From positions 32,001 through 96,000 of the IMG/VR virus record IMGVR_UViG_3300041964_000072: a DNA stretch of 64,000 nucleotides, one strand, 5' to 3'. Source of the stretch: a virus. The position numbers were made by a program, and so were the translations under genes. Shown piece after piece: positions 6,722-27,293 of this stretch (the stretch's first letter is position 1; every line of letters starts with the position of its first letter). Under the pieces are notes generated by a model, which was not told where the DNA came from, made no database searches, and saw only the letters and a list, made by a program, of their open reading frames with translations.

Positions 6722-6778
6722 AAACTGCCACTATAATGTCGAAATATTCAATTGTTAATACTACGTTTATTATATCTT

Positions 6779-7246: not shown

Positions 7247-7293
7247 AAATAGATTTGTTACTAGGTGTCCAAGTTTCGAGAAACAAATGAAAA

Positions 7294-8146: not shown

Positions 8147-8172
8147 TAAATGATGTTGTATTGGTCAAACAT

Positions 8173-10197: not shown

Positions 10198-10454
10198 TCA
10201 TTTAGCAGTAATACTCCGGTTTTTAAATCTTCCAGTTCAGTAAAATTCTTAGTCGATTGGGAATATCGGATTAGAGAATTTTCTCTAAATTCGTCAGGAT
10301 AATAATTACAGTAGTTTTGCAAATAATCGCTCAATTGATCAAAAGGGATTTCTATAAAGGCTTTGTTTTTAATGACAAATAGTTTGTCCCTAATTACATG
10401 ATAAATGTTTTTAATAATTCCGTTTTCAACGATTGCGACTTTGACGCTCATCAA
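10194..10454 (-). CDS. Small hypothetical protein overlapping the kinase 3' end (possible immunity/partner)
   Basis: 86 aa, not K/R-rich unlike its neighbours, overlaps the kinase stop by 29 bp. Confidence 0.6.
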   Translation of the reverse strand: MMSVKVAIVENGIIKNIYHVIRDKLFVIKNKAFIEIPFDQLSDYLQNYCNYYPDEFRENSLIRYSQSTKNFTELEDLKTGVLLLNE

Positions 10455-11679
10455 TCCAGTCCACCATACTTTTAGCCTGATCGTAATTGTATTTATAGAT
10501 TACTTTTTTCCGCTCCAAGTTGAGCAGTGCTTGTTGTCGCTCATACGGACTGGTCTTGCTGCCTAAAGCTTGTTCAAAATAATAGTCCAGTTTTTGACTT
10601 ACCCGTTCTGGAGGTTCTTTGTCAACGATGGTTTTTAGGGTATTTTTGAAAACATTGAGGTTTCTTCGCTGCCTTGGGGTAAAGGCTTCCAGTTCATTAT
10701 CTATTGCCCCTTTTATGCCGCTGAAGTCGTTAGCAAAGTTCAGTGATTCGCCTTGATCAATCAAGGTAAAGCGTCCCTTGTTGTACCAGATGTTATCGCC
10801 ATGCATATCAAAATTTGATGTCGTTAATCCATAAGCCAATATCTTGGATAAATCTGAATTATCTAATGCAGTCCGTATTTTTTCTCCTGCTGCAAAATAC
10901 TTTCCTGTTCGTCTATCTTCTTTAGGGTTAAACTTGAAACTCACATTAAACTTCTTGTTTAATTGCCCTTTTTGGACTGCACTAAATAGGCTTTGACCCG
11001 GAAGGAATTTATGTAGAGAATAAACATTACTACTATTCGTTAAAGGATGCTTGATTCCTTTTGGAATCAGTATAGTTTCTTGAGTGCGTACTCCAACTTC
11101 TTTAGCCATGTCTGAAAGCAGCGCTTCCGTAATGGGCATATTTATATTTCGTTCATAGCCTAGTCCTAATTTTTGGGCTAGAGGTTCTTTTACTCTAAAA
11201 AGAGAAGAGGCTTTCATAACGTATCTATTCCCTAATCGATCCTTGACAACTCTAGTAAGATTTGCGGATGCAGTTAAGGAAGCATTGGATATTTCCAAGT
11301 TGTCCAAAAAGTCACTTCCTCGAATTTTGCTGTTAGGCAAATCTAGTTTTCCTTGAACCTGTTTCCAGAATCCCTGGACATTGAACGTCTTTCCTTCCCG
11401 CCTACGCTGAAAAGGTTTTATGAATATACGTTTTGTGGTTTCAACTCTCTGGGACTGTTGGATAGCCCCTTCCAATGCTAAAAGTCGTTGTTTGGAAGTA
11501 GCCTTATCAAGACTATCCCCAATAGTTTGTCTCGCCCTATTATTCAGCCTTCCTGCAACAAGACCTATAGCTTTTCGATTTCCTCTAAGAGCCTTTCGGA
11601 ATTTTTTTCTTTTTTGCTGCTGCTTGTATTTGTCTATACGTCTCTGGAAAAAATTCTTGTCCTTTCTACCCAGTATCAT
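10426..11679 (-). CDS. HipA/PI3-PI4-kinase-like protein with basic N-terminal region
   Basis: RYVMK (Lys), TEALLSDMAKEVG, catalytic-loop-like NFDMHGDN and TLIDQGESL (DxHxxN / IDxG) motifs. Confidence 0.75.
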   Translation of the reverse strand: MILGRKDKNFFQRRIDKYKQQQKRKKFRKALRGNRKAIGLVAGRLNNRARQTIGDSLDKATSKQRLLALEGAIQQSQRVETTKRIFIKPFQRRREGKTFNVQGFWKQVQGKLDLPNSKIRGSDFLDNLEISNASLTASANLTRVVKDRLGNRYVMKASSLFRVKEPLAQKLGLGYERNINMPITEALLSDMAKEVGVRTQETILIPKGIKHPLTNSSNVYSLHKFLPGQSLFSAVQKGQLNKKFNVSFKFNPKEDRRTGKYFAAGEKIRTALDNSDLSKILAYGLTTSNFDMHGDNIWYNKGRFTLIDQGESLNFANDFSGIKGAIDNELEAFTPRQRRNLNVFKNTLKTIVDKEPPERVSQKLDYYFEQALGSKTSPYERQQALLNLERKKVIYKYNYDQAKSMVDWIDERQSRNR

Positions 11680-11681
11680 CG

Positions 11682-12107
11682 CTACCCTCCTTTGTATAGA
11701 GGGTATTTAATAGGTAAAGGATTTCCCGTCGAAAGCCGTGCCCAGCGCTGCCGAACTGCGTTTATATCTTTTCTCGCGTATCTTCCTGTAGCCGTTAAGG
11801 TATTATCAACATAGCGCTTTGCAACACTGATTCGGCTTGGTTTGACTGTACTTACGCTTGCATTAATATTTTTTAATTGTTTTCCAGTGCGACGAATACC
11901 GCTACGCAGCCCCTTGCCACCATACTTCAAGGCAGCGAGAGACGCTGCTCCTAAAACAATGGCTTCTGCTGGATTTATTTTTGCCCAATTTTTGACTCTA
12001 GAAGTTCTGCTCTTTTTCCGATCCCAGAACATTAACTTCCTCTTTACATAGTTGCGTTTAAATTCAGCAAAATCAGGGCTGCTTAATAAAGTAATCGAAT
12101 TATCCAT
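11682..12107 (-). CDS. Small basic protein, AxF-leader family
   Basis: PDFAEF|KRNYVKRK..., AIVLGAASLAALKYGG segment. Confidence 0.75.
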   Translation of the reverse strand: MDNSITLLSSPDFAEFKRNYVKRKLMFWDRKKSRTSRVKNWAKINPAEAIVLGAASLAALKYGGKGLRSGIRRTGKQLKNINASVSTVKPSRISVAKRYVDNTLTATGRYARKDINAVRQRWARLSTGNPLPIKYPLYKGG

Positions 12108-12378
12108 AAATTTCCTTAAGCGCTTTTCGTTTTATAGGGTTGCGTTCTCTGGAGCGCTGCTGGTATTGCACCTTTGTCGCGTAAAGCCCTCCAAGTCCTC
12201 CTGCCAAAGCTCCCCACTTAGCTGCTCGAATCGGACTACGCTTCCGGGAAAGTGCCCCTAACATTAAAACACTAGCCCCTCCACTACTACCTACAGCAGT
12301 ATTTAACAAGGTTTCTTTGGTACGCCTTGCCTTTTGTGCTTTTCGCTGTGCAAGGCTAAAAGTGGAGAGTAAATTCAC
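12100..12378 (-). CDS. Small basic glycine-zipper protein, AxF-leader family
   Basis: MNLLSTF|SLAQRKAQKARR..., WGALAGGLGGLY. Confidence 0.75.
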   Translation of the reverse strand: MNLLSTFSLAQRKAQKARRTKETLLNTAVGSSGGASVLMLGALSRKRSPIRAAKWGALAGGLGGLYATKVQYQQRSRERNPIKRKALKEIYG

Positions 12379-12446
12379 AATAATAAATTTGAATAATATA
12401 GGTCAGTAAATCTAAGCTTTTACTGATTAGCGATTCAAATAAGAGA

Positions 12447-12908
12447 TTAAACCGTGACGCTACCGTTACCTACCCAGCTTTCGGAACCCTTGATTCGCTC
12501 TTTCACATCATCAATGGATTCAAAGGGCTTCTCTTTCCGCAAAGAGATAATTTTGGGGATATGCTTTTCATCAATCCCCTCGATGGTTTTCAATGTCGCC
12601 TCATCTGCTGTGTTGAGGTTGATTGCCTTTTCCTGGAGCGCTGAAGGAATGAGGTGCTGAGTTTGTTCCTGTGGCGCTACGGGGGTCAACGGCATAGTGG
12701 TGGGATCTTTTGGCAGAGCATCCACTTGATCCGGTGAGCGGACATAAAAGCGGTTTTCCCGAATTTCTTCAGGAAGGGCTTCTTTGGCATAGTCCCCAGG
12801 CAAGTATTGATTTCCGGTTTTTGGCTGCACGTAATGTTTGATTAAAACAACCGTTTCCGGAGTGGGTTCTGTTTTCTTTTCTGTGGTTGGCTGTGCTTGT
12901 TCAGGCAT
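12447..12908 (-). CDS. ComEA-like helix-hairpin-helix DNA-binding protein
   Basis: C-terminal INLNTADEATLKTIEGID...IISLRKEKPFESIDDV is a ComEA-type HhH; lies directly after the capsid gene. Confidence 0.8.
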   Translation of the reverse strand: MPEQAQPTTEKKTEPTPETVVLIKHYVQPKTGNQYLPGDYAKEALPEEIRENRFYVRSPDQVDALPKDPTTMPLTPVAPQEQTQHLIPSALQEKAINLNTADEATLKTIEGIDEKHIPKIISLRKEKPFESIDDVKERIKGSESWVGNGSVTV

Positions 12909-12974
12909 AATGGATTTGATTATTAAAAGGTTTCTACTCTTATTTTAATTGATCAAAAATTATGGAAATCCCTA

Positions 12975-13013
12975 CTATTTAGGGGTCACAGGAATACTGC
13001 AACCCCTAAATAG
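12975..13013. terminator. Perfect 12 bp inverted repeat after the major capsid gene
   Basis: CTATTTAGGGGT-N15-ACCCCTAAATAG. Confidence 0.6.
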
Positions 13014-13031
13014 TTTAGTTCTAAAAAAGAT

Positions 13032-14228
13032 TTAATTAACGGTCTGAGCGTAGAGTAGCTTGGGATTCAAGAACACGGGAAGAAAAGTCATAACTGTCAA
13101 CGTCTCATCGAGTGGCGGTTGCTTTTGCTTCTCATGAGTGAGGACGTATACGCCTGTTTTTGGCATAGGCATACTGCCGTCACCAACAATAGTAGATGAG
13201 CTTTCCATAGTTACACCAATAGCTCGAATACCCGATTCTTTCTTGATAAATACAAACGTATTGTCGTTAAGGAATCTGGCATTGATGATGTTTTTGTTCT
13301 CATCTTCCAGGTTGTAGCGGTCATCCACAATCTTGATATTAGGAATTCCTCTTGCTTCAAGAATGGAATTCAACATATCAACGGATACCGTTCCTACGGA
13401 CGATCCACGCACAGAAGTCGCTGCATCTTTGGTGGATTTTTGTTGCATCAAATGGTTGTGAAGTTTCCGGGACATAACAATATAGTCCGGAGGAAAACCG
13501 TTTGTGTCTATATAATTGTCGATGGCATTGTAGAGTACTTGGATACCATTTGCATGTTCATAATCCGACCAGCGATTGAGGGTGCCGTCAGCATTTCCTT
13601 TAGCAATTAATGCTCCTGGAAAATGATTATAAGTTGCTAACGGATTCTTATAATCTAGACGTAGATTCATCTGGGTTCGAGGGTCACGACCTAAATCTAC
13701 CCCACCCGTTTGAAGCACTTGCCAAGTCATGCTGTCAGCCCGATCCATTACTGACATTACAAGCTTTTTAACACTTCCAAAAAGGAACATTGCAAGGTCA
13801 TTATTTGCACCATTGACAACATTTCCGTTTGCATCTCTCTGGTCTTGAACTGTTACACCTTTGAGGTTTGCTAGTTGCATCGCCTCGTACATTTGCCACT
13901 GCAAATTCTCATCATAGAGGCGAGAAACACCGATTTTCGCCATCTCTGCGGTGACTTTTTTGAACTCACCAAATCCGACAGTTGGAATCTCTTGTCCATA
14001 GGCAACAAGACTCGCAACAGGATTTACATCATTAGCAAGTAGTCCTAAAAAGTTACGTGAAGAGTACTCCTTTACTGGAGCAGCATCCCCCAAAACATTA
14101 GAGCGAGTACGCAATTGTACAAGTGTTTCGTCTACAATAGCGTCTGTTTGTTTAGATACGAGTCGATCGTTTAAATATGATGCAATTAATGCCATGATTG
14201 AATAGCTTTTTGTATGTTTAAAGCGCAT
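13032..14228 (-). CDS. Major capsid protein (HK97 fold, lambda E-like); probable start at MALIASYL
   Basis: 398 aa after the decoration gene; PDYIVMSRK, FLNDNTFVFI and MTFLPVFLNP motifs typical of Phage_cap_E-like capsids. Confidence 0.85.
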   Translation of the reverse strand: MRFKHTKSYSIMALIASYLNDRLVSKQTDAIVDETLVQLRTRSNVLGDAAPVKEYSSRNFLGLLANDVNPVASLVAYGQEIPTVGFGEFKKVTAEMAKIGVSRLYDENLQWQMYEAMQLANLKGVTVQDQRDANGNVVNGANNDLAMFLFGSVKKLVMSVMDRADSMTWQVLQTGGVDLGRDPRTQMNLRLDYKNPLATYNHFPGALIAKGNADGTLNRWSDYEHANGIQVLYNAIDNYIDTNGFPPDYIVMSRKLHNHLMQQKSTKDAATSVRGSSVGTVSVDMLNSILEARGIPNIKIVDDRYNLEDENKNIINARFLNDNTFVFIKKESGIRAIGVTMESSSTIVGDGSMPMPKTGVYVLTHEKQKQPPLDETLTVMTFLPVFLNPKLLYAQTVN

Positions 14229-14311
14229 TCAAATCACGCTGAGAATAGAGCCTTGGAAGGTTAATTCTTTGGCTCTAAACTAGGCTTTCTATCTCTAAAG
14301 AAACTGAAAAA

Positions 14312-15166
14312 TTAGAAGCGGTATTGAACCTGGAGATTTGGTAAATCTTCAAGAATTGATTCATCCCAGTAAGGGAGACTACCTTGATATACAGACCCTT
14401 CCGTACCCAGACCCAAAGAAACAGAGTCACGAGCATTTGTTACATCAAACGATGATTCCAAAAGCCCATATACTCGCTCCACAGGAACGCCAACATTGAA
14501 GCCTACTGGAACTGCTACAGCAGCATTAGCATCAAGGACAATCTCTTCTTTTTCACCGTCTACAAAAAGAACCTTTCCAATTGGAGTTGGATTAGGAACT
14601 GTCGTAGCAGGGATAGTACCAAAAGCACCAGAGGGGGTAATTTGATAGGGAGTGTAGCCGTCTTTGACAATCACATAAAGAATGTTGCCCTCAGCCAAGA
14701 AACGGAAGATACGGCTAAGGTATGGAGAGCTGTTAAAGTACTCAGAAAAAGCAAGAGCCGCTTCTTGAGGGGTGCCGACTCCAGTAGGAGTAAATGTCAC
14801 ACTCCGTCCGTTAACCCTTAAGCCACCTTGACCCGTACCAGTAATAGTAAATTGGGCAAAAGCTTCATGGATCGTAAGCTCATCACCAGCGACAAACACA
14901 TAGGGGTAGCCCACCTTGAAACGGTTTGTCGTAAGGGTTACTGGAGTGGACACTTTTCCACGAGGAAGTAAGCGCTCTACCAACTCCCCAGTAATTGTTT
15001 TGATATGCGCTCCAAACATTCCAGCGGGAACCGCTTTGCTACCATTTTTATCAGCCGAAATAAATTTTCGATCAATAGTGATGCTATTGGGGTGCCGAAT
15101 TCCGTGGCTAAATGCCCAGATAGGTTTTTGGGAGTTATATGAATCGTGAATAGTAAAATGAGGCAT
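14312..15166 (-). CDS. Head decoration protein
   Basis: 284 aa beta-rich ORF (KAVPAGMFG...) between scaffold and capsid genes. Confidence 0.65.
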   Translation of the reverse strand: MPHFTIHDSYNSQKPIWAFSHGIRHPNSITIDRKFISADKNGSKAVPAGMFGAHIKTITGELVERLLPRGKVSTPVTLTTNRFKVGYPYVFVAGDELTIHEAFAQFTITGTGQGGLRVNGRSVTFTPTGVGTPQEAALAFSEYFNSSPYLSRIFRFLAEGNILYVIVKDGYTPYQITPSGAFGTIPATTVPNPTPIGKVLFVDGEKEEIVLDANAAVAVPVGFNVGVPVERVYGLLESSFDVTNARDSVSLGLGTEGSVYQGSLPYWDESILEDLPNLQVQYRF

Positions 15167-15236
15167 AAGTTTAGAGCAAAAAAGAAGGAATTAAAGCTCT
15201 AATTATTGCTTTGCCTATACTTCAATAAAAGGTGGA

Positions 15237-16268
15237 TTAATTAAGGAAACCTTGCTCTTTGTAGAGTTCCATGTTGCGACGGGCTTGCTCCTCAAGGCTG
15301 TCAGAAAACTCAGCCTCTTCATACAGTTCTGGAGATTCATGTGAAAGTTGCCCATTAGGAAAGATTTCACCACGAGAGCCGAGTACCTTTAAAGCGTACT
15401 GGATGCACATTAAATGTGTATCAATGTCCATATCGTTGGACTCAGTAGCGGCTGCAAACAGTCCGATCTTATCTCTATCAAGAGCATCAGGTAAGTCACC
15501 AAATAAAGCATCGAATTCTACAGGAAACATCAACCGTGCTTCAACCATATCTTCGGCATGTTGCACAAGTTCATCAAGCTGATCTTTTACTGCTTGTTGT
15601 ACCTGAAATTCTGCTAGTTGATTCTGTACTTCCATCAACTCGCTACGATATTGAGCGGTTTCGTCGTCTTCAACAAGGACATATTCATCCTCGTCATCGA
15701 ACTCCTCATCACCCATGTCCTCGTCATATTCTGCCTCGAATTCGTCTTCATAATCATCAGAAATCTCGAATAGATCATCGAGATATTCAATTTCATCTTC
15801 TGATTCAGCAAGATCATTACGGGCTTCAAGAGCTAAGGTTTGGAATCCGATATAAGCATCTTCATCCTCTGAAGTAGCTTCAAAGGCAGAAGCTAGTTGA
15901 TCTACCAATTCTGCATCGGGAATAACTTCACCTGTGACCAATGCCAAGATAGCTTCTGGCTCATATCCGGTAATTTCGGATAAGGCGAGGACTCCTTCCT
16001 CACTATCTTCGTATTCCTCTTCAATCAGGCTTCCTAGTGAATGCCCAAAAGCGTTAGTTGCTGTGGCAGTAAATTCGGCAATATTTAGCATAGATTCGTT
16101 AAAATTAATGTCTTCAGGAGGTATTCTTTCGTTTAAATCAGTATGGGCTTGTAGCCGATATTCTTTAGCCGACACTGCATCTAAAATACCCCTTTGCTCA
16201 GCTAAATTGATATTACTTAAAGTTGTGTTGAAAAGTTCTTGATGATATTCTGGAGAGTTGATTTCCAT
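15237..16268 (-). CDS. Acidic capsid scaffolding protein
   Basis: Extremely Asp/Glu-rich, helical, upstream of decoration/capsid; contains three AEF motifs. Confidence 0.65.
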   Translation of the reverse strand: MEINSPEYHQELFNTTLSNINLAEQRGILDAVSAKEYRLQAHTDLNERIPPEDINFNESMLNIAEFTATATNAFGHSLGSLIEEEYEDSEEGVLALSEITGYEPEAILALVTGEVIPDAELVDQLASAFEATSEDEDAYIGFQTLALEARNDLAESEDEIEYLDDLFEISDDYEDEFEAEYDEDMGDEEFDDEDEYVLVEDDETAQYRSELMEVQNQLAEFQVQQAVKDQLDELVQHAEDMVEARLMFPVEFDALFGDLPDALDRDKIGLFAAATESNDMDIDTHLMCIQYALKVLGSRGEIFPNGQLSHESPELYEEAEFSDSLEEQARRNMELYKEQGFLN

Positions 16269-16314
16269 GAATTTCCTATTAATTTAATTTTATTATAATG
16301 AAGCGCTATTTGGC

Positions 16315-16692
16315 TTATTTTGTCTTATTTTTTAGTCTTTTTCTAATCTTATTTGCTGCTGTAGCTCCTAATCCTAAGCCCAATCCAGTGATAGCTAACT
16401 TGCTTTGTAGGGGGGTATTTAGGTTTAAAGCGATTCCTTTTTTCAATGCTCTAGACTGTTTTCCAATATTGCCAACTAGTCGATTATTGAACAATTTACT
16501 CTTACTGCTATCAGCAAATTTTTTTGCAGCTCTTGGAGTTTTTGCTGAACTTAGGATTGGGATTGTTGCCCCTATACCTGCTCCGGTTAACCCACCTAAC
16601 ATTAAGTCCGAAGAGGTTTTTACTGAAGCTGGTATATTACTTTTTTTGTTATCAGACTTTCGTATAAGGCGGAACTCGGAGAGTATATGCAT
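16315..16692 (-). CDS. Small basic glycine-zipper protein, AxF-leader family
   Basis: MHILSEF|RLIRKSDNKK..., LGGLTGAGIGATI and ITGLGLGLGATAA. Confidence 0.75.
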   Translation of the reverse strand: MHILSEFRLIRKSDNKKSNIPASVKTSSDLMLGGLTGAGIGATIPILSSAKTPRAAKKFADSSKSKLFNNRLVGNIGKQSRALKKGIALNLNTPLQSKLAITGLGLGLGATAANKIRKRLKNKTK

Positions 16693-16746
16693 GGGGAAAG
16701 TAGATGTGTTATAGAAAAAATCAAACCTTAACCATATCTTTTGAAA

Positions 16747-17295
16747 TTACTTTTTTTGATACATCTTTGCTTTCTTGGCTGCTTCTCTTTGTGCCCGTTT
16801 TGCTGCGGCTTCAGCCTTCTTCTGTTTATTATTCTTGCTCAATAGGGAAGTAGAAGATTTCTTACTGGACGCTGGTGCTACCACGGCTACCGTTGGCTTA
16901 GCTGATGGTGTAGGTTTAGGGGCACCCATAACCATGTTCCAGCCTTTATTCCCCATTGGAGTATTCATAGGAACAGTTCCACCAGGACTGTTACCGAAAG
17001 TCATGTTCCAACCCTTGTTACCTCCCATAGGGACAGTAATAGGAGTTGGAGGAGCCGCTTTTTTGGCTCTCCGACCTATCTTAGAAAGCGCTCCTAAAAT
17101 AGCACCTCTATTTCTGTAGCCTAATGCACCGACTCCGGCTACTCCTCCTACGACACCAGCAGCAGTTATACCTTTGCGAACAGCACGTTTACGTTTATCT
17201 TTCGATCCTTTGCGCCGAAAAAAGTCTGCGTAGGAATCAGAGTATGAGTAAGTTAAGTCAGCCATAATTGCAGTGAATAAATTAATGTATGTCAC
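16747..17295 (-). CDS. Basic glycine-zipper protein with MG(N/S)(K/R)GWN repeats, AxF-leader family
   Basis: SYADF|FRRKGSKDKRKR, GVVGGVAGVGALGY, two GNKGWNM repeats; paralog of 17337-17750. Confidence 0.8.
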   Translation of the reverse strand: MTYINLFTAIMADLTYSYSDSYADFFRRKGSKDKRKRAVRKGITAAGVVGGVAGVGALGYRNRGAILGALSKIGRRAKKAAPPTPITVPMGGNKGWNMTFGNSPGGTVPMNTPMGNKGWNMVMGAPKPTPSAKPTVAVVAPASSKKSSTSLLSKNNKQKKAEAAAKRAQREAAKKAKMYQKK

Positions 17296-17336
17296 TACAA
17301 TCTAAGAATTAGTGAAATATGTTTTCTAACTAAGTT

Positions 17337-17750
17337 TTATCGTCCCATCGTGACATTCCAGCCACGATTGCCCATCATGTTATTCATAGATGTAGAAGGT
17401 CTTGCCCCTCCCATTGAAACATTCCATCCTTTAGATCCCATCATTGTATTTGTGGAAGTAGATGGAGGATTTCCACTGGTTCTGTTACTGGGCTTCCCAC
17501 TGATATTAACGTTAGATTTTTTGGAGCCTTTCTTACCTCTTTTCATAGCGTTTCTTGCCTTCCGACCAAGCTTAGAAAGGGCACCAGAAATAGCGCCTCT
17601 ATTTTTATAAGCGGCAACTCCGGCAAGTCCAGCTAATGCACCACCACCAGCGATCCCTACCCCTGTTCGGATATTCCGATTTCTGCGCTGCTTGTCTCTG
17701 GCTCCTTTGGTACGGTAAAAATCTGCGTATGCGTCTGCGTAAGTATACAT
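17337..17750 (-). CDS. Basic glycine-zipper protein with MG(N/S)(K/R)GWN repeats, AxF-leader family
   Basis: AYADF|YRTKGARDKQRR, GIAGGGALAGLAGVAAY, MMGSKGWNVSMG and MMGNRGWNVTMG. Confidence 0.8.
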   Translation of the reverse strand: MYTYADAYADFYRTKGARDKQRRNRNIRTGVGIAGGGALAGLAGVAAYKNRGAISGALSKLGRKARNAMKRGKKGSKKSNVNISGKPSNRTSGNPPSTSTNTMMGSKGWNVSMGGARPSTSMNNMMGNRGWNVTMGR

Positions 17751-17815
17751 AAGTGATTGTGTGAATAGGTTGATGAATTAATCTAATGGTTGTTATTTAT
17801 CCAAAGGGAATTGTT

Positions 17816-19414
17816 TTATTCCAAGTTTTTATTTTTCTTAGGTCTACCTCGCTTCTTTTTAGGAGCAGGAGCGGGAGCGGGAGGAGTTCCCATAGTGGTA
17901 TTCCATCCACGACTACCCATTTGCATAGGAGCGGGTGCTGGTGTGGCAACAGCTATTGGCTTGGAAGGTGCCCTAGCTGGAGTAGGTGCTGCTGGGGGTT
18001 TACCCATAGTCATGTTCCATCCCCGATTGCCCATAGCCGTAGGAGCGGGAGGCGCTACTGGAGATTGCCCCATATTTACGTTCCAGCCTTTATTCCCCAT
18101 AGCTGTAGGAGTGGCGGGAGCGAGAGCAGCAGGAGCAGCGGGGTTAGCTCTTATTTTGCGTCCTCTTCCAGATGGAGTGCTTTTCTTGCCTCTCAATAAC
18201 TGTTTTCCTCGTACAAGGTCTTTTCGGAGGGTTCGATTAGCCTGGAATCCACCCCCCTTTACTGCATTCGCACCAGCTCCAAGCGAACCAAGTACCCCTG
18301 TCCCCGACTTCCTTGCACCTTGAAAACCTGTTTTTGCTAGTCCTGCTGATTTTGCGATCGCTTTACCAATCCCGTAGCGACCTCCAAGACCGATCGCAGC
18401 AGCTCCCAGTCCTACACCAGCAGCTACTTTTGCAGCATTGCCTACAACACTACTTTTTTTCCTCCGCTGCCACGGAAACTCATAGAAGTCTGCATAATAC
18501 AGATCTTCGATTTCATCCATTGTGAAAGCGGCTAAGACTTGATCATTTTGAGAGAATCTTCCTTGATATGCCATAGGTGAGGGAGGTTGGTTTATAGGGG
18601 TTTGCATCTGTTGTTGCATTTCCTGCTCATAATCAGCATCTCTTTGCAAGGGAAGGTATTCGGGTAGAGTTTCTTGGAATTCGTTTAGCACTTGTTGGTA
18701 GTAGATTTCTCTGCTTTGTCCTTGCAATTCTTGATCAGAGAGATTAGTAATGTTATCTACTACGTCATATAAAGTGTCTAGTAGTTTATGACCTTCCTCC
18801 CTCATCCCATCAAGCTCAGCAGATTCGGCAAGAGCGTCTGATAAAGTCAGTGCGCTCATAAAGTGGGCTAACTGCTCCTTACGCCTGGAAAATAGAGTTG
18901 CTTGAGATAATGCGCCAATCCCTACCAAAGATAACTCTCTGATAACATTTTGGGCAAAATCTACACCACAAGATACTGTTTTTCCAATACCATTTTTAAG
19001 TTTTTGTATTACGGCAGGGTCTTTGATTTTGGCAGCATTACAGAAGATTCCATAACGTCCGATTAAATTTTTTAATTTAGGCTTTTGAGCGACATCATAT
19101 TCATTGATAATCCTAGCTTCCAATGGTTCATCAATAATGCCGACAGCGCTATCAATATCTTTCTGATGTTCCTTAAAAATACTGATGTCGGATTCTTCAA
19201 GAAATTCATTTGTATTCTCTACTATTTCTTGAATATCATCAGCAGTTACAATCCAAGTCCTACCTTTAGAATCCTTGTGTCCGACATCATCGCTTTCATA
19301 AAAAATAAGACCTGACTGGACAAGTTCTTCAGGACTTTCTTCAACAGTAGTAGCAAATGAGGCGCATTGTAATGGTTGTATTTGGGCTACGGGGACGTGT
19401 CTTCGTTTTGCCAT
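17816..19414 (-). CDS. Prohead protease (HK97/Mu-type fold) fused to an acidic helical region and a basic glycine-zipper tail
   Basis: N-terminal FKEHQKD..SAVGII (His), KTVSCG (Ser) and RELSLVGIGA match HK97-family protease motifs; C-terminal third resembles 16747/17337. Confidence 0.75.
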   Translation of the reverse strand: MAKRRHVPVAQIQPLQCASFATTVEESPEELVQSGLIFYESDDVGHKDSKGRTWIVTADDIQEIVENTNEFLEESDISIFKEHQKDIDSAVGIIDEPLEARIINEYDVAQKPKLKNLIGRYGIFCNAAKIKDPAVIQKLKNGIGKTVSCGVDFAQNVIRELSLVGIGALSQATLFSRRKEQLAHFMSALTLSDALAESAELDGMREEGHKLLDTLYDVVDNITNLSDQELQGQSREIYYQQVLNEFQETLPEYLPLQRDADYEQEMQQQMQTPINQPPSPMAYQGRFSQNDQVLAAFTMDEIEDLYYADFYEFPWQRRKKSSVVGNAAKVAAGVGLGAAAIGLGGRYGIGKAIAKSAGLAKTGFQGARKSGTGVLGSLGAGANAVKGGGFQANRTLRKDLVRGKQLLRGKKSTPSGRGRKIRANPAAPAALAPATPTAMGNKGWNVNMGQSPVAPPAPTAMGNRGWNMTMGKPPAAPTPARAPSKPIAVATPAPAPMQMGSRGWNTTMGTPPAPAPAPKKKRGRPKKNKNLE

Positions 19415-19420
19415 AAGTGC

Positions 19421-21064
19421 TTAAGGTAATGGCACTCGATAGTTTCCCGTGAAAACATTTGGTTTGCTTCGGTGCTTTTGTTTTTTATATGCAGAAAATA
19501 ATACTAAGCTATCTGATTTCAATTCTATATCTTTTATAAGGTTTATGGGGTACTTACTAAACTGTCCTTTACGCTGTTTTTCTAATAATCTTTGTTCTAG
19601 ACTTTTATTTAATTCTTTAATGTCTTTTCTGAGCTTAGCCTGTTTTTCAGCGATTTCTCTTTGAGATAAGGTGTTGCCTTTTCCTACCTCTTTTTCTATT
19701 GTCGCAATCTGTTTTTTGATAGCCTCTTGAGTAAGTTCGATACTCTCTTTTGCTTGAGGTGTTTTTGCTTTTTGTGCGGCAAGTTCTAGATTACCAAGGG
19801 TTCTATCCCAACGAAAAACATCTTTATTGTTTAGTTGTCCTAATTCTTTTCGCTTCTTGACAATATCTTTGTAAATCTGCATTTTTCTGATCATATTACC
19901 TCTCGATGCATTGATCTGTCGGGTAACATTCTCTCGATAATTCCGAGAACGATCATTGATCAGAGGTATAACCGATGCTTTCTCTTTGGCTGTGATTAGT
20001 TTTGTATGCTTTAGCCGATCATGGATAGGTACATCGGATACATACGATTTCAAACCTCTACCCAAACGTCGATATACACCGACACCATCGGTACGGTAGG
20101 AAGCCTCGGATAATAGTTTGCTGTATTTTCGTTTATCATCTTTGGAGATATTGGTCAAATCCATGATCTCCAGATGCTTGTCAAACCCTTGGTCGTAATT
20201 TACATTACCCTTTTTTTGACTTGTTCTGGGTGGGTTTTGTAATGGGTTTCCGCTAACATCTCGGATAATACGTCCTCTGGAATCCCGATAAATATCTGGA
20301 ACGTTCTCATCTAAGGTTTCAAACAATTGATTTGCCTTGGCTTCTAGTTTTTTGGCTTCTGCTTGAAGGGCTTTTCTTTGTCCATAAGTAATGTTTGGGT
20401 CTTGAAGAATATTCCCAATCTCCCCTGCTCGTTCTTGCAGCTCTGATAGTTCCTTACTCAGAACCTTTGTTTTGCCTTCAGGAGTCCTGGGAGTCCGCTT
20501 GGGGGGAGGAGAGATAACTGGAGAAGAGGGGATCGCCTCAATCGCTGACGTAGGGGCAACCGGAGTAGGAGCAGTGCTGACTTCCGGGATCTCGTTTATT
20601 ACCTTTTGGAGGTTCGGGGTAGGCGTACTTGGCGTACCTTTGTTAACTGTAATAATTCGAGGTTTGCCTCTCCTAGCTTTTGCCGCTGCTGGTGCTACAG
20701 GCACTCTAGGCACAGGAGAAGGTGATGGAGGTAGATTTATGGCAGGAGGAGCTGACGGAGGTAAGTTAATAACAGGAGAAGTTACACGCACATTTACAGC
20801 AGGTGTAGGAAGTGCCTGTAGTATCGCTGCGGTTTCTTTTTTTGATACATTCTGCGATCGCCTCAATACCGAAGCGGCTTGTTTGAAGCCCTTTCTGCTT
20901 CCCAGTAAATATGCTCCGGTTATACCTGTTCCGACAAGTCCAGTAACTCCCGCTCCGAGAAGAAAACCCTTTTTTCTGTCATTAGCTCTACGGGAATGTC
21001 TCCTAACAGTAGAAAATCCTTTTCCAGTGCGACGGAGATAGGACTTTACTTCCTTTTTATTCAT
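19421..21064 (-). CDS. Large basic protein with hydrophobic Gly segment, Pro-rich linker and coiled coil (candidate internal/ejection protein)
   Basis: MNKKEVKSYLRRTGKGFSTVRRHSRR, GFLLGAGVTGLVGTGITGAYLLG, Pro-rich stretch, helical C-terminus; lies between MuF and protease. Confidence 0.7.
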   Translation of the reverse strand: MNKKEVKSYLRRTGKGFSTVRRHSRRANDRKKGFLLGAGVTGLVGTGITGAYLLGSRKGFKQAASVLRRSQNVSKKETAAILQALPTPAVNVRVTSPVINLPPSAPPAINLPPSPSPVPRVPVAPAAAKARRGKPRIITVNKGTPSTPTPNLQKVINEIPEVSTAPTPVAPTSAIEAIPSSPVISPPPKRTPRTPEGKTKVLSKELSELQERAGEIGNILQDPNITYGQRKALQAEAKKLEAKANQLFETLDENVPDIYRDSRGRIIRDVSGNPLQNPPRTSQKKGNVNYDQGFDKHLEIMDLTNISKDDKRKYSKLLSEASYRTDGVGVYRRLGRGLKSYVSDVPIHDRLKHTKLITAKEKASVIPLINDRSRNYRENVTRQINASRGNMIRKMQIYKDIVKKRKELGQLNNKDVFRWDRTLGNLELAAQKAKTPQAKESIELTQEAIKKQIATIEKEVGKGNTLSQREIAEKQAKLRKDIKELNKSLEQRLLEKQRKGQFSKYPINLIKDIELKSDSLVLFSAYKKQKHRSKPNVFTGNYRVPLP

Positions 21065-21068: not shown

Positions 21069-23144
21069 TTAATGCTTTACTGTTAATATTTTAGCTTTCC
21101 TGAATAGGGCTAAATTGGGATAATTTCTTTGTAAATTAGCGTCACCTTCAGTAGATGCTCGAATCAAGTCAACAAGTCGTTTCTGTTGCCTAGCCTTTAC
21201 TTTGAGATTCATTTTTTTGTATCTTTGAGTTATGTAAAAAACCTTATTTGGATTATATTTTGTACCATTTATAGAGAGGCTATAAGTGGGATAAGCCCTA
21301 CTTACTTGTTCAAACAATCCCTGAATATTTCGGATAAATGGACTATCTTCCTGCAATAAAGAATCCATTTCGTCTACATCCCGGATAGTCTGGATGATGC
21401 GATTATTTAAAATATCAGATTCGCCTATCAAGTTTCCTGCTGTAGGATCGTCTATCATCGACATTAAGCGATTAGTCTTCCGGGCAACCCCTGTCAGCTC
21501 AGCATTAATAAGTAAAAATTGATTTTCCATATTCAAGAGCCGTTGAAGCTCTCTACGCAATTCCGCCAACAACGGTTTTGCCGACTGCCTTGCGGCTAAT
21601 AGCTGTTGCTGTTGTTGTACTTGCTGTTGTACTGCTGGAGACTCTATCGCTTTTTGGGTAGCCTCTACCTCTGGCTCAGCAATAGGTGAAATCAAGTCCT
21701 CTACTGTTTTAACGCCCGGAACAAATTCAAGTATTTCAGACATAACTCTTTCCTTAATCTCTTTGACATATTCTGGATGAGACTTGAGGTAAAAGTAGTA
21801 CATCAAGCCAATCGACAATATAGAGGTTGTGACAAAGAGTAGTTTTAAGCGTTCCTGGTCTTCCTGTTGTTTTTTGAGTTCTTGTAGTTGATAATATAGG
21901 CTTAACGTTTCATAGGTATTTGGGTTTAACATCAATAATGCTTCCTGAGTAAGAAAGGAAGTTATTGCTTTACCTACCACACCCTTAATAATGCCTTGCT
22001 TTTGCTGTGCAACACCTCCCTGCAAAGTGTTGCGAATACGCTCAATCTCATCTTCTGGTGTCTTTCCTGCTGCAATTAATCGTTCAAGATCTTTTTGGTT
22101 TCGGATTGGCTCTAGAAAGCAGTCACAAAAAGGATGGACTGGCGGATAAGGATGGGTGGTTTGTCTTTGTGCAGGTTTTTTGGTATCAACTCTACGGAAG
22201 TCTGTAAAAAAATAACTCTTCAAATCTGGGACAAGGCTTACTAAGCGCCCATCCATGCTCGTACACAACTCGCACGTCTCTCGCCCAGACATCCTCCAAA
22301 TAAAATCCGACACCCCTCTTGATAGAAATCGGTCTGCACGTCCTAGATTATAGGCGGCGTTAATCTCTGTTTGTGCAATACGATCAATCCTATTGATCGG
22401 ATTAATTTTATAGAAAGCGCTGTCATAGGATTCGGGGTCAGATGCGATCGCATCTTTCAAACCATACGTTCCTTTAATCTGTTTCAAACGATCAGGGTTG
22501 ACGTTCTTTTGGATTTCAGATAACTGACGCTGGTTTAGTAGGGGTAAGAGTTCCTTTCGCTCTGCTGGGGTCAAGTCCGTGAACCGCTTAAAGCTGAGCC
22601 TATTGATTAAGGTACGTTCCTTGTTGGTAGTCAAGCCTACGTTTACATCGGATTTGATATAACGGCTGATTGAGTCTCTAATTTTGCGAGTATATTCATT
22701 GGTAAAAGATCTCGCAATCACGTTATTACGTTCATTCAGGTATATTTGCCCAAACTCCGTTGTAGCAATTGGAGTCCTACCTTCATACTGAATAGTACGT
22801 CGCTTCTCTCGTCCTGATCTCGTTTTGATGCGAGAAGCTGCTTCATCTTTGCTTAGGTTGTCTGCCAGAAACTCAGCAATATCAGTAGATTCATTGAATT
22901 TCGCAAGTGATTCCTGCCCATAGGAAAAGCCCTGATTCCAAAGACCTGTCAGCTCTCCTTTAAGTATGGATGTGAAAGGAATATCAATCCTTTCTAGGAC
23001 TTTTGGATCTTTGTCTATGAGAGGTTTTATGTTCTTTTTTAACCACTGCTCATAAGCGTTGTTGATTTTGGTAAATGTCCTTTGTACAAACTGATTTTTA
23101 TAATTTACTCGCTGGGAATTGCTGAATAAAGAGTCATATTTCAT
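21069..23144 (-). CDS. MuF (SPP1 gp7-like) head morphogenesis protein with long C-terminal extension
   Basis: RIDRIAQTEINAAYNLGR...CELCTSMDG...PPVHPFCDCFL MuF signature, followed by roughly 340 further residues. Confidence 0.85.
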   Translation of the reverse strand: MKYDSLFSNSQRVNYKNQFVQRTFTKINNAYEQWLKKNIKPLIDKDPKVLERIDIPFTSILKGELTGLWNQGFSYGQESLAKFNESTDIAEFLADNLSKDEAASRIKTRSGREKRRTIQYEGRTPIATTEFGQIYLNERNNVIARSFTNEYTRKIRDSISRYIKSDVNVGLTTNKERTLINRLSFKRFTDLTPAERKELLPLLNQRQLSEIQKNVNPDRLKQIKGTYGLKDAIASDPESYDSAFYKINPINRIDRIAQTEINAAYNLGRADRFLSRGVSDFIWRMSGRETCELCTSMDGRLVSLVPDLKSYFFTDFRRVDTKKPAQRQTTHPYPPVHPFCDCFLEPIRNQKDLERLIAAGKTPEDEIERIRNTLQGGVAQQKQGIIKGVVGKAITSFLTQEALLMLNPNTYETLSLYYQLQELKKQQEDQERLKLLFVTTSILSIGLMYYFYLKSHPEYVKEIKERVMSEILEFVPGVKTVEDLISPIAEPEVEATQKAIESPAVQQQVQQQQQLLAARQSAKPLLAELRRELQRLLNMENQFLLINAELTGVARKTNRLMSMIDDPTAGNLIGESDILNNRIIQTIRDVDEMDSLLQEDSPFIRNIQGLFEQVSRAYPTYSLSINGTKYNPNKVFYITQRYKKMNLKVKARQQKRLVDLIRASTEGDANLQRNYPNLALFRKAKILTVKH

Positions 23145-25401: not shown

Positions 25402-25713
25402 ATGACTGATACCCTTGTCTTTGAGATCTTGAAAATGTGTCTAGGACAAAAAGCGGTAGTAGATATCTATACCCCGTCAGACATGTTCATTGACGCTCAC
25501 TTAGTTAAATTGTCCGACGAGTATGTAGTCTTTACGAGTACCGAGCTAGATTTTCAGCCTGAAGACTTACTGGCAAGCGTGGGTTGTTCTGGCAATTTGA
25601 AAGAATCCCTTCCTAAAGGAGATAGCAAAATTAAGCAGTTTTGCTGGAAGATATCCGATATTAATGGAGTTAGCCACACACTCGCTACCTTCCCATCCGA
25701 TACGGATAATTAG
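25402..25713 (+). CDS. Hypothetical protein
   Basis: 103 aa ORF ending the + strand block, converging on terL. Confidence 0.6.
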   Translation: MTDTLVFEILKMCLGQKAVVDIYTPSDMFIDAHLVKLSDEYVVFTSTELDFQPEDLLASVGCSGNLKESLPKGDSKIKQFCWKISDINGVSHTLATFPSDTDN

Positions 25714-27293
25714 CCAAACAACTGCCTAAAGTATGTGGTAGTTGTGGGGATTTGATACTGAGCGGGAATCTCAAATAACTTCTTGGCTTCAGCCGTTTCA
25801 TTGAAGCTATTAGTCCCCATAACAACTGATGATGTATTTCGTTCTAGAGTAAGGTAATTGATGCCCTGTGCGATCGCATCTACCTGATCATCATATTTCC
25901 CATTGGGGAAGGCTAATAATTCTGCAATCAATTCTTGTACCCACGGATATCGCTGGGGATTTGGAAAATAAATATTACCACTGGTGAAAAAAGGGAGTGA
26001 AGCGAGAAGCCGCTCCTCTTTGCTTTTGGTAGGGCTTACTGCATGAATGCCTGGTATTTGATTTTCAAGCATTTGAATAAGTGGACTACCATTTGATTTC
26101 CGCTCAACAATCTTTGCTCGTACTGGGAATGTGTGGCAAAGCTGTTTGAAGAGGTTGATTTGAGCAGGGAAATCTATCTGCCCACGCACGGCATGGAAGA
26201 CATAGATATTAGCAAGAATACGCCCAAGGATAATGAACGAGCTGTAGTTTGATTCCTGTGTGGATTCTGTTGCTAAATCGACGGTGAGAATAACATCATT
26301 GCATAGGCTAATATCGGGTAAATTATCAGTGAATTTTAAGTATTCTGTCTTGACATAAGCACCGTCAGAACCCGATGGATTTTGCTGGTAAATCGCTTGC
26401 CAAGTTAGCGGGTTTTTCTTTTCAATATGATAGTAATCGCCATCAAAACGACTTGGACAGATTAAATCCCCTTCCTTCTTTCTGGGATCATTTCGCCCAA
26501 TCGGTGATGCAATCATCAATTTGGGTTCGTATTCTGCGGGAAGGATTACTTGTGTCCAACCTGGCTCATTTTCAAGCACATAATCCGTAATATCTCCATT
26601 CGCTAGTCGCTGCTGAATTAAAAGTTTTCTGGCTGTTCTTGAATTATTTGCACGATTTCGGAGTACATTTTTGTAGAAATTTACTGCCTTAATAATTGCC
26701 GCTTGGGAATAAATGGCATCTGAAGAGTTAAGGTCATCCATTATCAAACTGGTGTAACCCAAACCTAATATCTGAGTGGTTGGTGTCACTCCAAGTCGGT
26801 AGCCTTTTTCGTTGTTATCGAAGCGTAATTTTGTGTTGCTATCAGAAGTCAATCTGAATCGCTTGTGCTTATCAATCCAATGCGTTTTGTACCAATTGCT
26901 TGTAATTAATGAACGACATTTAATGGAGAGGTCAACCACTAAGCGCTCAGTATGGCTTGCTGCCATAATCTTTTCAGAAGGATTACGCAGCCATAGCCAT
27001 GCCGGATAAACAACGCTACATAGTAGTGACTTACCTAGTCGGGGATGTAGATTGATAATTAAGTTTTGGCAATGAGGATCACCTTTTGCTTGAGCAGTCA
27101 GATGATCTGCAATAAGGTCTAGATGCCAGCAACTTAGGTATTTTTCGGATTCAATCTCATTCCATGCTCTGATGAAAAAATGCCTAAGACTTTCCTCTGC
27201 CAACTTATAATCTTCATCAATAAGTTGGCGTTCAAGATCGAGTAGTTTTTGTGAGTTAGATGGCATTAAAAAGGGACAAGAATCCCCTTTCAA
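25710..27293 (-). CDS. terL: Terminase large subunit
   Basis: INLHPRLGKS (Walker A variant), LIMDD (Walker B), LIQQRL, C-terminal LTVDLA and GKYDDQVDA nuclease motifs. Confidence 0.92.
   Translation of the reverse strand: MKGDSCPFLMPSNSQKLLDLERQLIDEDYKLAEESLRHFFIRAWNEIESEKYLSCWHLDLIADHLTAQAKGDPHCQNLIINLHPRLGKSLLCSVVYPAWLWLRNPSEKIMAASHTERLVVDLSIKCRSLITSNWYKTHWIDKHKRFRLTSDSNTKLRFDNNEKGYRLGVTPTTQILGLGYTSLIMDDLNSSDAIYSQAAIIKAVNFYKNVLRNRANNSRTARKLLIQQRLANGDITDYVLENEPGWTQVILPAEYEPKLMIASPIGRNDPRKKEGDLICPSRFDGDYYHIEKKNPLTWQAIYQQNPSGSDGAYVKTEYLKFTDNLPDISLCNDVILTVDLATESTQESNYSSFIILGRILANIYVFHAVRGQIDFPAQINLFKQLCHTFPVRAKIVERKSNGSPLIQMLENQIPGIHAVSPTKSKEERLLASLPFFTSGNIYFPNPQRYPWVQELIAELLAFPNGKYDDQVDAIAQGINYLTLERNTSSVVMGTNSFNETAEAKKLFEIPAQYQIPTTTTYFRQLFG

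Follow-up and report, generated by a model that had tools for sequence, protein, structure and literature searches.

A tryptophan-centred peptide kept by protein-level selection in three paralogous head-module proteins of an uncultured biocrust phage: a candidate docking motif

The DNA analysed here, hereafter the window, is a stretch of 64,000 nucleotides from the genome of an uncultured biocrust phage. Three neighbouring genes on its minus strand encode, in-frame, seven copies of the motif MG[NS][KR]GWNxx[MF]G: three in the 532-aa ORF of a prohead protease, two in ORF137, and two in ORF182, all where the earlier note had placed them. The carrier genes are flanked by MuF and protease genes and by acidic scaffold-like, decoration-like, and capsid genes; a helix-hairpin-helix protein gene adjoins the capsid gene. 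The features of the three carriers are listed below, and the motif scores are from a PSSM made from the seven copies.

17816..19414, minus strand: prohead protease polyprotein, 532 aa, with a protease domain, an acidic helical middle, and a C-terminal 'cargo-like' module with three motifs
18485..18499, minus strand: YYADF boundary, residues 306–310 of the protease ORF, start of the paralogous tail module and candidate processing site
18380..18436, minus strand: glycine-zipper-like hydrophobic segment of the protease tail, from the paralog alignment
18068..18100, minus strand: motif copy 1, protease tail, 44.5 bits
18002..18034, minus strand: motif copy 2, protease tail, 22 residues past copy 1, 47.2 bits
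17888..17920, minus strand: motif copy 3, protease tail, 38 residues past copy 2, 41.7 bits
17828..17860, minus strand: AT-hook-like basic C-terminus of the protease, an R-G-R-P core flanked by Lys
17337..17750, minus strand: ORF137, small basic paralog with an N-terminal peptide ending in YADF, then YRTKGARDK, a glycine zipper, and a two-motif tail
17610..17663, minus strand: glycine zipper of ORF137
17409..17441, minus strand: motif copy 4, ORF137, 41.2 bits
17343..17375, minus strand: motif copy 5, ORF137, 22 residues past copy 4, 45.6 bits
16747..17295, minus strand: ORF182, second small basic paralog, with the architecture of ORF137 plus a Lys-rich C-terminal end
17119..17172, minus strand: glycine zipper of ORF182
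16993..17025, minus strand: motif copy 6, ORF182, 39.6 bits
16924..16956, minus strand: motif copy 7, ORF182, 23 residues past copy 6, 45.8 bits

Copy 6 is a variant in which an extra Gly displaces the first Met by one residue and Phe replaces the last Met. ORF137 ends two residues past copy 5; the gene callers of protein databases start ORF182 ten codons later, giving a protein of 172 aa. When the PSSM was scanned over the six-frame ORFs of the 132.7-kb genome, the seven copies scored 39.6–47.2 bits and every other position at most 12 bits. Across all 132,738 bp of the genome, the degenerate DNA pattern for G-W-N-x-x-[MF]-G had seven matches, each on the minus strand; neither the plus strand nor the reversed control gave a match. 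Together, the pattern counts and the PSSM exclude chance as an explanation of the seven copies. In the same PSSM scan, the other head proteins of the genome contained no copy of the motif, not even a degenerate one, and this also held for about ten other basic glycine-zipper proteins of the same head module.

To classify the largest carrier, we used an AlphaFold2 model of residues 1–300, the core of which has pLDDT values of 70–90. Its best structural match was T4 gp21 (5jbl_A; Z 9.4, rmsd 2.9 Å, 117 aligned residues), the only match with Z≥8 among 48,161 chains, and the top Foldseek matches were all herpesvirus assemblins (probability up to 0.97, with an E of only 7.6e-3). The predicted fold supports that this carrier is a prohead protease of the T4-gp21/assemblin type, in agreement with the label 'protease' that had been given to it from the sequence. 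His83 and Ser148, the candidate catalytic residues, are invariant in a five-sequence homolog alignment, and the protein is 27–29% identical to the corresponding gene product of PA-SR01 and Pam2. The distant homolog in PA-SR01 has been assigned to PF10123 by HHpred (PMC10286775); PF10123 (Mu-like prophage protein I) gave no match at E≤10 in a six-frame search of the genome and none by hmmscan. In the paralog alignment, the YYADF sequence at residues 306–310 lies opposite the N-terminal YADF of both ORF137 and ORF182, and we infer that the protease may be cleaved at this boundary. A glycine-zipper segment equivalent to that in the protease tail is kept in the protease homologs P0074, P0075, L043, and L049. 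The extreme C-terminus of the protease scored 15.7 bits (E 0.013) against PF02178 (AT_hook), the cut-off of which is 17.4 bits.

The C-terminal module of the protease, ORF137, and ORF182 are paralogs with 38–40% identity. ORF137 and ORF182 match a family signature, xF-[AYG]-R-x-x-G-[AS]-K-D-[KR] (typically xF-[AY]RTKGAKDK), that lies near the N-terminus and is followed by a glycine zipper, and that we found in 16 proteins from seven of the eight metagenomic relatives described below; the protease tail keeps YADF and the zipper and lacks the G-[AS]-K-D part. The two small proteins are encoded between the protease and scaffold-like genes, as are family members in the relatives, and family members in the window phage and in all relatives are recognisable by a short N-terminal peptide whose last residue is Phe. 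After this Phe, the three chains have a pI of 12.0 and contain 26–38 Lys and Arg and 1–3 Asp and Glu (26 and 1, respectively, in ORF137). From the gene context and the Phe-ending peptides, the carriers would be packaged in the head and processed at this Phe.

The motifs occur in pairs at a pitch of 22–23 residues in all three carriers. They lie, as the earlier note had described, in disordered segments rich in Pro, Ala, Thr, and Ser, which are also charge-poor. The disorder is predicted: AlphaFold2 gave these segments no secondary structure and a pLDDT of about 50, and the ESM Atlas model had a pLDDT of 0.55. In the motif-bearing segments, Lys and Arg make up 7–11% of residues compared with 21–50% in the flanks, and acidic residues are lacking. 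Almost all Met of the three post-Phe chains (8/8, 7/8, and 6/7) and all Trp of ORF137 and ORF182 fall within them. This composition, low in Lys and Arg and rich in Met and Trp, is closer to that expected of a hydrophobic docking knob than to that of a polycation.

Six of the 11 motif positions are invariant across the seven copies. In the codons for the invariant G, G, W, N, and G, the pairwise difference is 0 at position 1, 0 at position 2, and 0.57 at position 3, and 67% of the degenerate codon pairs for identical residues differ between copies. Because only third positions vary in the invariant codons, selection acts on the peptide and not on the DNA, which bears out the reasoning from synonymous variation around an invariant G-W-N by which the earlier note had arrived at selection on the protein. 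The linkers between motifs have no common sequence, yet the pitch within pairs is kept at 66, 66, and 69 nt. The motif has thus been kept by protein-level selection while linkers and synonymous sites diverged and, taken with the disordered setting, this supports a behaviour like that of a short linear motif, as had been suggested. The seven copies are not independent events; each paralogous carrier inherited an aligned motif pair. Three plus-strand ORFs are open across the motifs (17790–18323, 17350–17610, and 16775–17119); because the protease homology and the family signature lie on minus-strand frames and the variation falls on minus-strand third positions, we rejected them as genes. Among sequencing runs, none of RNA was listed as containing this sequence, and two biocrust runs from a second study yielded only short, low-depth fragments that were 100% identical, with no variant strain to compare.

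By the earlier note's own reasoning, a motif not conserved in homologous phages would count against its docking reading, and that is the outcome as far as the data go; the pattern and profile searches that the note had proposed likewise yielded no second carrier. The motif is absent from all ten relatives examined (eight metagenomic phages and the isolates PA-SR01 and Pam2; 32–65% identity in the MCP), though all keep the head module, its capsid, scaffold-like, and protease genes included, and the small basic protein family. By capsid protein identity the nearest sequence is P0006, at 69%, which lies on a contig of 2.2 kb. Relatives' proteases that are 46–52% identical have tails of their own without the motif, and past the glycine zipper the C-terminal tails are hypervariable from one relative to another. 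Because the relatives lack it, the motif is dispensable for assembly in this group and is not a conserved, essential assembly signal. As far as the available sequences go, it was added in this lineage alone.

A profile of the three paralogs, searched against 1.84 billion protein representatives, found no carrier beyond the three window proteins. Neither did a word-based search with ORF137, which returned only itself, or a scan of IMG/VR with the protease, confirmed by tblastn. A nine-fold repeat protein matched by the profile (P0004) was spurious, having V-K-G-W-Q only. With the DNA pattern for M-G-x-x-G-W-N-x-x-M-G, IMG/VR gave 31 single matches, almost all from one unrelated conserved family; another (L027) is a high-GC low-complexity protein rich in Met, Gly, and Arg. 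A stricter DNA pattern gave one out-of-frame chance match in JGI metagenomes and none in 185,579 species genomes. With W-N-x-x-M-G in tandem, there was no match in IMG/VR, and the species genomes matched three times; two of these are chance matches and the third is an archaeal Met/Gly-rich repeat. Pfam and PHROGs held no family matching the motif-bearing proteins, a PDB sequence search with the two-motif tail found no chain at E≤10, and the ESM Atlas offered no usable neighbour. That the motif had gone unrecognised at first sight is in keeping with its lack of a match to any known family.

Our working hypothesis is that the motif is a lineage-specific, multivalent, Trp-anchored protein-docking peptide with the procapsid interior as the leading candidate partner, and we put the probability of this reading at about 40%. 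In this model, the invariant Trp, two flanking Met or Phe, and one Lys or Arg between flexible Gly would make up a small knob, part hydrophobic and part basic, that fits into a pocket on a folded partner, and avidity would come from two or three such knobs per chain on three proteins. The partner would most readily be the inner face of the procapsid (the major capsid protein or the scaffold), in which case the motif would be an accessory tag by which the protease tail and the two sister proteins are anchored or retained; second comes a host protein encountered following ejection. Both protein binding and the choice of partner are proposed from several lines of evidence: the selection on the peptide together with a spacing kept across unrelated linkers, the disordered setting resembling that of short linear motifs, and the head-interior gene context. 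The HK97 protease reportedly has a C-terminal targeting tail, described by Duda and colleagues in 2013. The head-interior setting is further suggested by the Phe-ending N-terminal peptides, which resemble the capsid-targeting propeptides of T4, for which there is precedent (PMC7411985); there is precedent for protease tails in this role, too, as the C-terminal tail of SPN3US gp245 is a prohead-targeting signal (PMC7411985). Since the other head proteins carry no copy, the motif is not a general processing signal. Three observations weigh against docking. The motif is missing from ten relatives whose capsid, scaffold-like, and protease genes are the same; about ten basic glycine-zipper proteins without it imply that encapsidation evidently does not depend on it; and the AT-hook-like end of the protease suggests that some of the tail, at least, contacts DNA.

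An unlikely alternative is that the motif is directed at the host. The three proteins would then accompany the DNA on ejection, with the Trp knobs engaging the membrane interface, peptidoglycan, or a defence protein, while the glycine zipper would enter the membrane with the Pro-rich tail as a spacer. A lineage-specific motif and hypervariable tails are the pattern expected of host-interaction surfaces, Trp and Lys/Arg beside Gly are typical of interfacial anchoring, and the neighbourhood is of the MuF-plus-effector type, with ADP-ribosyltransferase-like genes (weak or faint Pfam matches) between the MuF and protease genes of relatives. However, the lack of the motif in 185,579 species genomes gives no sign of mimicry, and one of the carriers is the tail of a protease whose first task lies inside the prohead.

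Contact with DNA is somewhat more doubtful still. Here, the Lys/Arg-Gly-Trp-Asn core would wedge into or stack on packaged DNA and, with the AT-hook-like end and the basic blocks, help to condense or organise the genome. The strongly basic post-Phe chains, the score of the AT-hook-like end, and the helix-hairpin-helix gene beside the capsid gene, which implies other DNA-binding parts in the module, agree with this. Yet the chains are at their least basic in the motif-bearing segments; being rich in Met and Pro, these are unlike known minor-groove peptides (AT hook, SPKK), and the relatives manage without the motif.

Four further explanations have very little likelihood. We would be surprised if the Trp knobs on ejected head proteins jammed a host defence protein by filling its Trp-binding pockets; were this so, they would be a phage counterpart of the plant-virus GW motifs that disable Argonaute, and the hypervariable tails of the relatives an arsenal of lineage-specific anti-defence peptides. 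It is hardly more credible that the prohead protease cuts at each motif, so that the tails leave the capsid as peptides of about 22 residues: the regular spacing and the motifs in the protease's own tail would fit, and scaffold-like parts are commonly degraded by phage proteases (PMC7411985), but an 11-residue core far exceeds the needs of known prohead proteases, the motif is missing from every other likely substrate of the genome, the recurrent signature that marks the family in all relatives is instead the Phe-ending N-terminal peptide, and proteases 46–52% identical have tails without the motif. A Met/Trp metal site (of the Cu(I) type, as in CusF), Asn glycosylation, or a Lys-Trp cross-link is similarly improbable. 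The motif is rich in Met and Gly with one Trp, N-x-[ST] occurs in five of the seven copies, and Met/Gly/Trp-rich repeats exist elsewhere, for example on the Methanosarcinales contig L053; against this, model searches of the genome record, which is ~65% complete, matched neither a radical-SAM enzyme nor a GT41 N-glycosyltransferase, three copies have Arg in place of Lys, the S/T position varies, and copper inside a capsid has no biological rationale. Finally, that the motif is a functionless remnant of segment duplication or gene conversion, as the paralogy of the carriers and an identical 21-nt core in two copies might suggest, is scarcely compatible with six residues invariant in seven copies while linkers and synonymous sites are near saturation, or with zero difference at positions 1 and 2 of the invariant codons, and recent conversion would have homogenised linkers and third positions as well.

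If the docking hypothesis is correct, this is a short linear motif that was born recently in a phage lineage, spread to three paralogs, the protease among them, and was frozen by selection, and the peptide could find use as a portable tag with which proteins are loaded into an HK97-fold shell. The immediate importance is limited, as only one uncultured biocrust phage is known to carry the motif, which is missing from all relatives examined. More broadly, the analysis draws attention to a larger conserved family, so far unstudied, of small basic proteins with a glycine zipper, encoded in the head modules of ~130-kb phages that are related to the cyanophages PA-SR01 and Pam2; lineage-specific functions may evolve in the variable tails of these proteins.

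Several known systems invite comparison. Like the AT hook (PF02178), a short basic peptide in disordered, Pro-rich protein, the motif is short and lies in such a tail, and the AT-hook-like end of the protease begins 9 residues past copy 3; the repeated Trp motif, however, is hydrophobic, has no R-G-R-P core, does not match PF02178, and is a separate element. GW/WG Ago-hook motifs, among them those of the TCV P38 capsid protein and the SPMMV P1 silencing suppressor, act on a host defence protein by lodging Trp in its pockets (PMC5393175, PMC5737661). The window motif resembles them in form only, with several Gly-flanked Trp in a disordered region; Ago-hooks need little beyond G-W and are known only from eukaryotic systems, whereas the core of the window motif spans 11 residues, Met and Asn being among those conserved. 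With the capsid-targeting sequences of T4 and the tail of SPN3US gp245, which are short peptides that direct head-internal proteins or the protease to the prohead, and with the signal of HK97 gp4, it shares its setting in a head module with a gp21/assemblin-fold protease. The T4 signals are single N-terminal propeptides of 10–20 residues that the prohead protease cuts off; the window motif occurs in two or three C-terminal copies, is centred on Trp, and shows no sequence relationship to them, and so falls outside that class, and because relatives lack it, it is not the general targeting device of the group. The carboxysome scaffold CsoS2 is likewise a disordered protein whose repeated short motifs bind multivalently to the inner face of an icosahedral shell, with a different motif, many more repeats, and a bacterial organelle in place of a virus. 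Encapsulin cargo-loading peptides and the disordered cargo domains of Family 2 have flexible Pro/Ala/Gly-rich linkers and dock inside an HK97-fold shell (PMC8346489). Although their consensus (TVGSL-type, GPTGLGT) and their usual single peptide per chain both differ from what is seen here, the window motif may, by analogy, be likened to them as a short conserved peptide on a flexible linker.

The Trp-centred, 11-residue peptide MG[NS][KR]GWNxx[MF]G was described in an earlier note as seven copies spread over three adjacent genes, and three scans bear this out. The window covers positions 32001-96000 of an IMG/VR virus record 132,738 bp long. In the six-frame translation of the window, G-W-N occurs 17 times, and the seven occurrences that lie in the full motif context are all inside the 532-aa predicted prohead protease, ORF137, and ORF182. 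A degenerate DNA pattern returned the identical seven copies and no others in the whole genome, and its reversed control gave no match. Scored with a position-weight matrix, the seven copies reached 39.6–47.2 bits and no other position in the six-frame ORFs of the genome exceeded 12 bits. We conclude that the seven copies are confirmed, far beyond chance. The head-module genes and associated features are as follows:

25710-27293, minus strand: large terminase, upstream of the capsid gene
21069-23144, minus strand: MuF-like protein, upstream of the capsid gene
19421-21064, minus strand: ORF547, between the MuF-like gene and the protease
20723-20770 and 20657-20674, minus strand: repeat and AT-hook-like features of ORF547
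17816-19414, minus strand: predicted prohead protease, 532 aa, three motif copies
17337-17750, minus strand: ORF137, 137 aa, adjoining the protease
16747-17295, minus strand: ORF182, 182 aa (172 aa from the start used by database gene callers)
minus strand: ORF125, after ORF182 and before the acidic scaffold-like gene
15237-16268, minus strand: acidic scaffold-like protein
14312-15166, minus strand: decoration-position protein (slot of the lambda decoration gene)
13032-14228, minus strand: major capsid protein (PHROG 29 and Pfam Phage_cap_E)
12447-12908, minus strand: helix-hairpin-helix protein (HHH_3/ComEA-like), directly downstream of the capsid gene
4191-21064, minus strand: extent of the small basic protein family in the window
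17790-18323, 17350-17610, and 16775-17119, plus strand: antisense ORFs of 86–177 aa, open across the motif region

The suggestion that synonymous variation reflects protein-level selection also holds. Over the seven copies, all four Gly codons, both Asn codons, and four Lys/Arg codons are in use, and 67% of same-residue degenerate codon pairs differ between copies. The codons for the invariant G, G, W, N, and G differ at third positions only (mean pairwise difference 0, 0, and 0.57 at positions 1, 2, and 3). Strong purifying selection acts on the motif at the peptide level. Because this codon-position pattern is combined with a DNA identity of only 62–83% over 39 nt, neither a DNA-level repeat nor recent gene conversion would explain the copies. 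The antisense ORFs, which show a pseudo-repeat of their own (F-[HQ]-P-x-x-P-I), were rejected as genes because they are artefacts of Gly/Pro/Ala-rich codons and homology lies in the minus-strand frames.

Within the described head genes, curated families (PHROGs, Pfam) match the major capsid protein only, and neither Pfam nor PHROGs supports the label protease for the 532-aa protein. We modelled its residues 1–300 from a five-sequence alignment (the window protein and four homologs). Among 48,161 PDB representatives, the top structural match was gp21, the capsid assembly protease of T4 (Z 9.4, rmsd 2.9 Å, 117 residues), the sole match with a Z of at least 8, followed by the varicella-zoster virus protease (Z 7.5), and every top Foldseek match was a herpesvirus assemblin. 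His83 and Ser148 are invariant in the alignment, and the 29% identical homolog in PA-SR01 has been assigned by HHpred to the Mu protein I family (PMC10286775). The label given in the earlier note is therefore supported, and the protein is a predicted prohead protease. PA-SR01 and Pam2, the closest isolates by capsid protein (32% identity), are Pseudanabaena phages; the isolated distant relatives infect this cyanobacterium.

Protease residues 300–532 align with ORF137 and ORF182 at 38–40% identity over an entire module, which starts with YADF and a basic block and continues with a segment resembling a glycine zipper, another basic block, and an aligned motif pair; the N-terminal halves of ORF137 and ORF182 share 70–77% nucleotide identity. 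By these alignments the three carriers are paralogs, and the seven copies thus go back to a single pair that was duplicated as part of the module, to which the protease adds a further copy. The linkers between the first two copies have no common sequence among the carriers, yet the spacing is kept (22, 22, and 23 residues).

Searches returned 69 capsid protein homologs (38–69% identity) and two protease homologs (48–52%). We compared eight metagenomic contigs of relatives, five with a capsid identity of 62–65% (L042, L043, L045, L047, L048) and three with ~50% (L049, L051, L052). All eight share one gene order, running from the protease through the small basic proteins to the acidic scaffold-like, decoration-position, capsid, and helix-hairpin-helix genes; the last gene has the same position in every relative with recovered sequence downstream of the capsid gene. 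Small proteins bearing a common signature (a Phe-ended N-terminal peptide of 5–25 residues, [AYG]-R-x-x-G-[AS]-K-D-[KR], a basic run, and a glycine zipper) are present in seven of the eight (L042, L043, L047, L048, L049, L051, L052), the contigs covered by the signature scoring; the small proteins of L045 have the Phe-ended peptide and the zipper. Each phage has two to four family copies plus the protease tail, which also carries a glycine zipper in all relatives with a recovered protease gene (L043, L049, L051, L052). By sequence, ORF137 and ORF182 are clear members of this conserved, unnamed head-module family. If cut after the Phe, many family chains would start with A-R-T-K, like the histone H3 tail, which is probably a coincidence.

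Conservation of the Trp motif itself in homologous phages, raised in the earlier note, did not hold: it is absent from all ten examined, the eight metagenomic relatives as well as PA-SR01 and Pam2. Beyond the zipper, the C-terminal regions are different in every lineage: Lys/Glu-rich, Ser/Thr/Lys-rich, or with other repeats. A tree of capsid proteins places this phage inside a supported clade (98/97); all examined clade members are without the motif, and so are the outgroups. The most parsimonious reading, from which the nearest relative (69% capsid identity) was left out because its contig is too short, is that the motif was gained on the phage's own branch and then spread among paralogs; it thus appears lineage-specific. 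Upstream of its scaffold-like gene, L045 (capsid 63% identical) encodes a 178-aa protein (positions 23-559) in which a different 18-residue repeat (R/K-K-x-G-S-T-K-I-D-Y-Y-P-K-E-P-G-T) occurs twice before a C-terminal glycine zipper, and lineage-specific paired peptides may be a general habit of this protein set. ORF547 is laid out like the carriers (basic N-terminus, glycine zipper, Pro-rich linker), with its own repeat I-N-L-PP-S twice, 10 residues apart, and then an AT-hook-like R-R-G-K-P-R. At its place between the MuF and protease genes, L051 (4725-5996) and L052 (1417-2925) have genes with weak or faint Pfam matches to ADP-ribosyltransferase toxin families, which suggests a variable packaged-effector slot.

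The earlier note did not recognise the motif, and the motif-bearing proteins indeed have no sequence match in Pfam, PHROGs, or PDB and no match in ESM Atlas. The pattern and profile searches proposed there yielded no carrier beyond the three window proteins in the collections searched: a profile of the paralogs against 1.84 billion representative proteins found these three and one spurious repeat protein, word-based and tblastn-based searches added none, and scanning IMG/VR, JGI metagenomes, and 185,579 species genomes with DNA patterns turned up only unrelated families, chance matches, and two Met/Gly-rich low-complexity proteins. These two, from a Methanosarcinales MAG (L053:1528-1600; Y-G-W-N-G-M-M-G-type repeats after a hydrophobic N-terminus) and a high-GC viral contig (L027:6252-7988; M-M-G-R-R-G-W-N-P-A-M-G-G), are probably unrelated, their likeness being superficial. 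Biocrust metagenomes from two studies (2017, 2021) contain the phage, as an identical 16.5-kb stretch in a Logan contig of one run and as short identical fragments in runs of the second study, with 100% identity where covered. To date a single genome is known to carry the motif; near-identical strains could exist.

As the earlier note had it, the copies lie in Pro/Ala/Thr/Ser-rich linkers (36–57% of these residues) predicted to be unstructured. The AlphaFold2 model of the protease tail has a mean pLDDT of 50 and, of the 233 residues modelled, those beyond residue 106 lack secondary structure; for ORF137, the model in ESM Atlas is no better. The chains after the Phe are highly basic (pI 12.0, 26–38 Lys+Arg, 1–3 Asp+Glu). 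Their motif-bearing segments are the least basic parts (7–11% Lys+Arg versus 21–50% in the flanks), have no acidic residues, and account for nearly all Met in the three chains and, in ORF137 and ORF182, for every Trp. Because a Trp anchor, a disordered, Pro-stiffened setting, two to three spaced copies, purifying selection, and fast turnover come together here, we tentatively favor a putative protein-docking short linear motif, with a probability of roughly 0.4. The invariant aromatic anchor, set between flexible glycines with two conserved Met/Phe and one Lys/Arg, would make each copy a small hydrophobic-plus-basic knob entering a pocket of a folded partner, and several knobs on three proteins would provide avidity. 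The C-terminal tail of the HK97 protease is a prohead-targeting device. Because such tails are known from phage proteases (PMC7411985) and one carrier is a protease tail, the prohead interior would be the partner's most natural place; we assign about two thirds of the docking probability to a head-internal partner and about one third to self-association or to other partners from the phage.

A role directed at the host once the proteins have been ejected is unlikely, with the lineage-specific, hypervariable tails and an effector-like neighbourhood, including the relatives' ADP-ribosyltransferase-like genes, speaking for it. Slightly less likely still is contact with DNA: the overall charge of the chains would suit it, as would the protease C-terminus, where a Lys-flanked R-G-R-P, 9 residues past the third copy, falls just below the Pfam AT-hook cut-off, but the motif segments are charge-poor and Met-rich. 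Cleavage sites are highly improbable, given that the motif is in none of the other candidate substrates, greatly exceeds known protease sites in length, and is distinct from the signature that marks where the family is likely processed; metal binding or modification, to which gene content lends no support, and a functionless relic, with which the codon-position pattern conflicts, are equally so. Because the relatives and ~ten sister proteins in the same head module manage without the motif, a docking motif would be an accessory anchor at most, and a role in basic assembly is disfavoured.

Encapsulins load cargo into HK97-fold shells via short peptides on flexible linkers (PMC8346489), and T4 capsid-targeting propeptides are removed by the protease (PMC7411985); the latter are resembled by the Phe-ended N-terminal peptides of the small basic family. 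The motif is similar in setting to the T4 CTS, protease tails, and encapsulin peptides, all of which serve targeting or docking, and in form to GW-type Trp hooks, but differs from the T4 CTS in position and copy number. It has no sequence match to any family and is assigned to none of these classes, and we conclude that it is a real, selected, previously unrecognised, lineage-specific motif.
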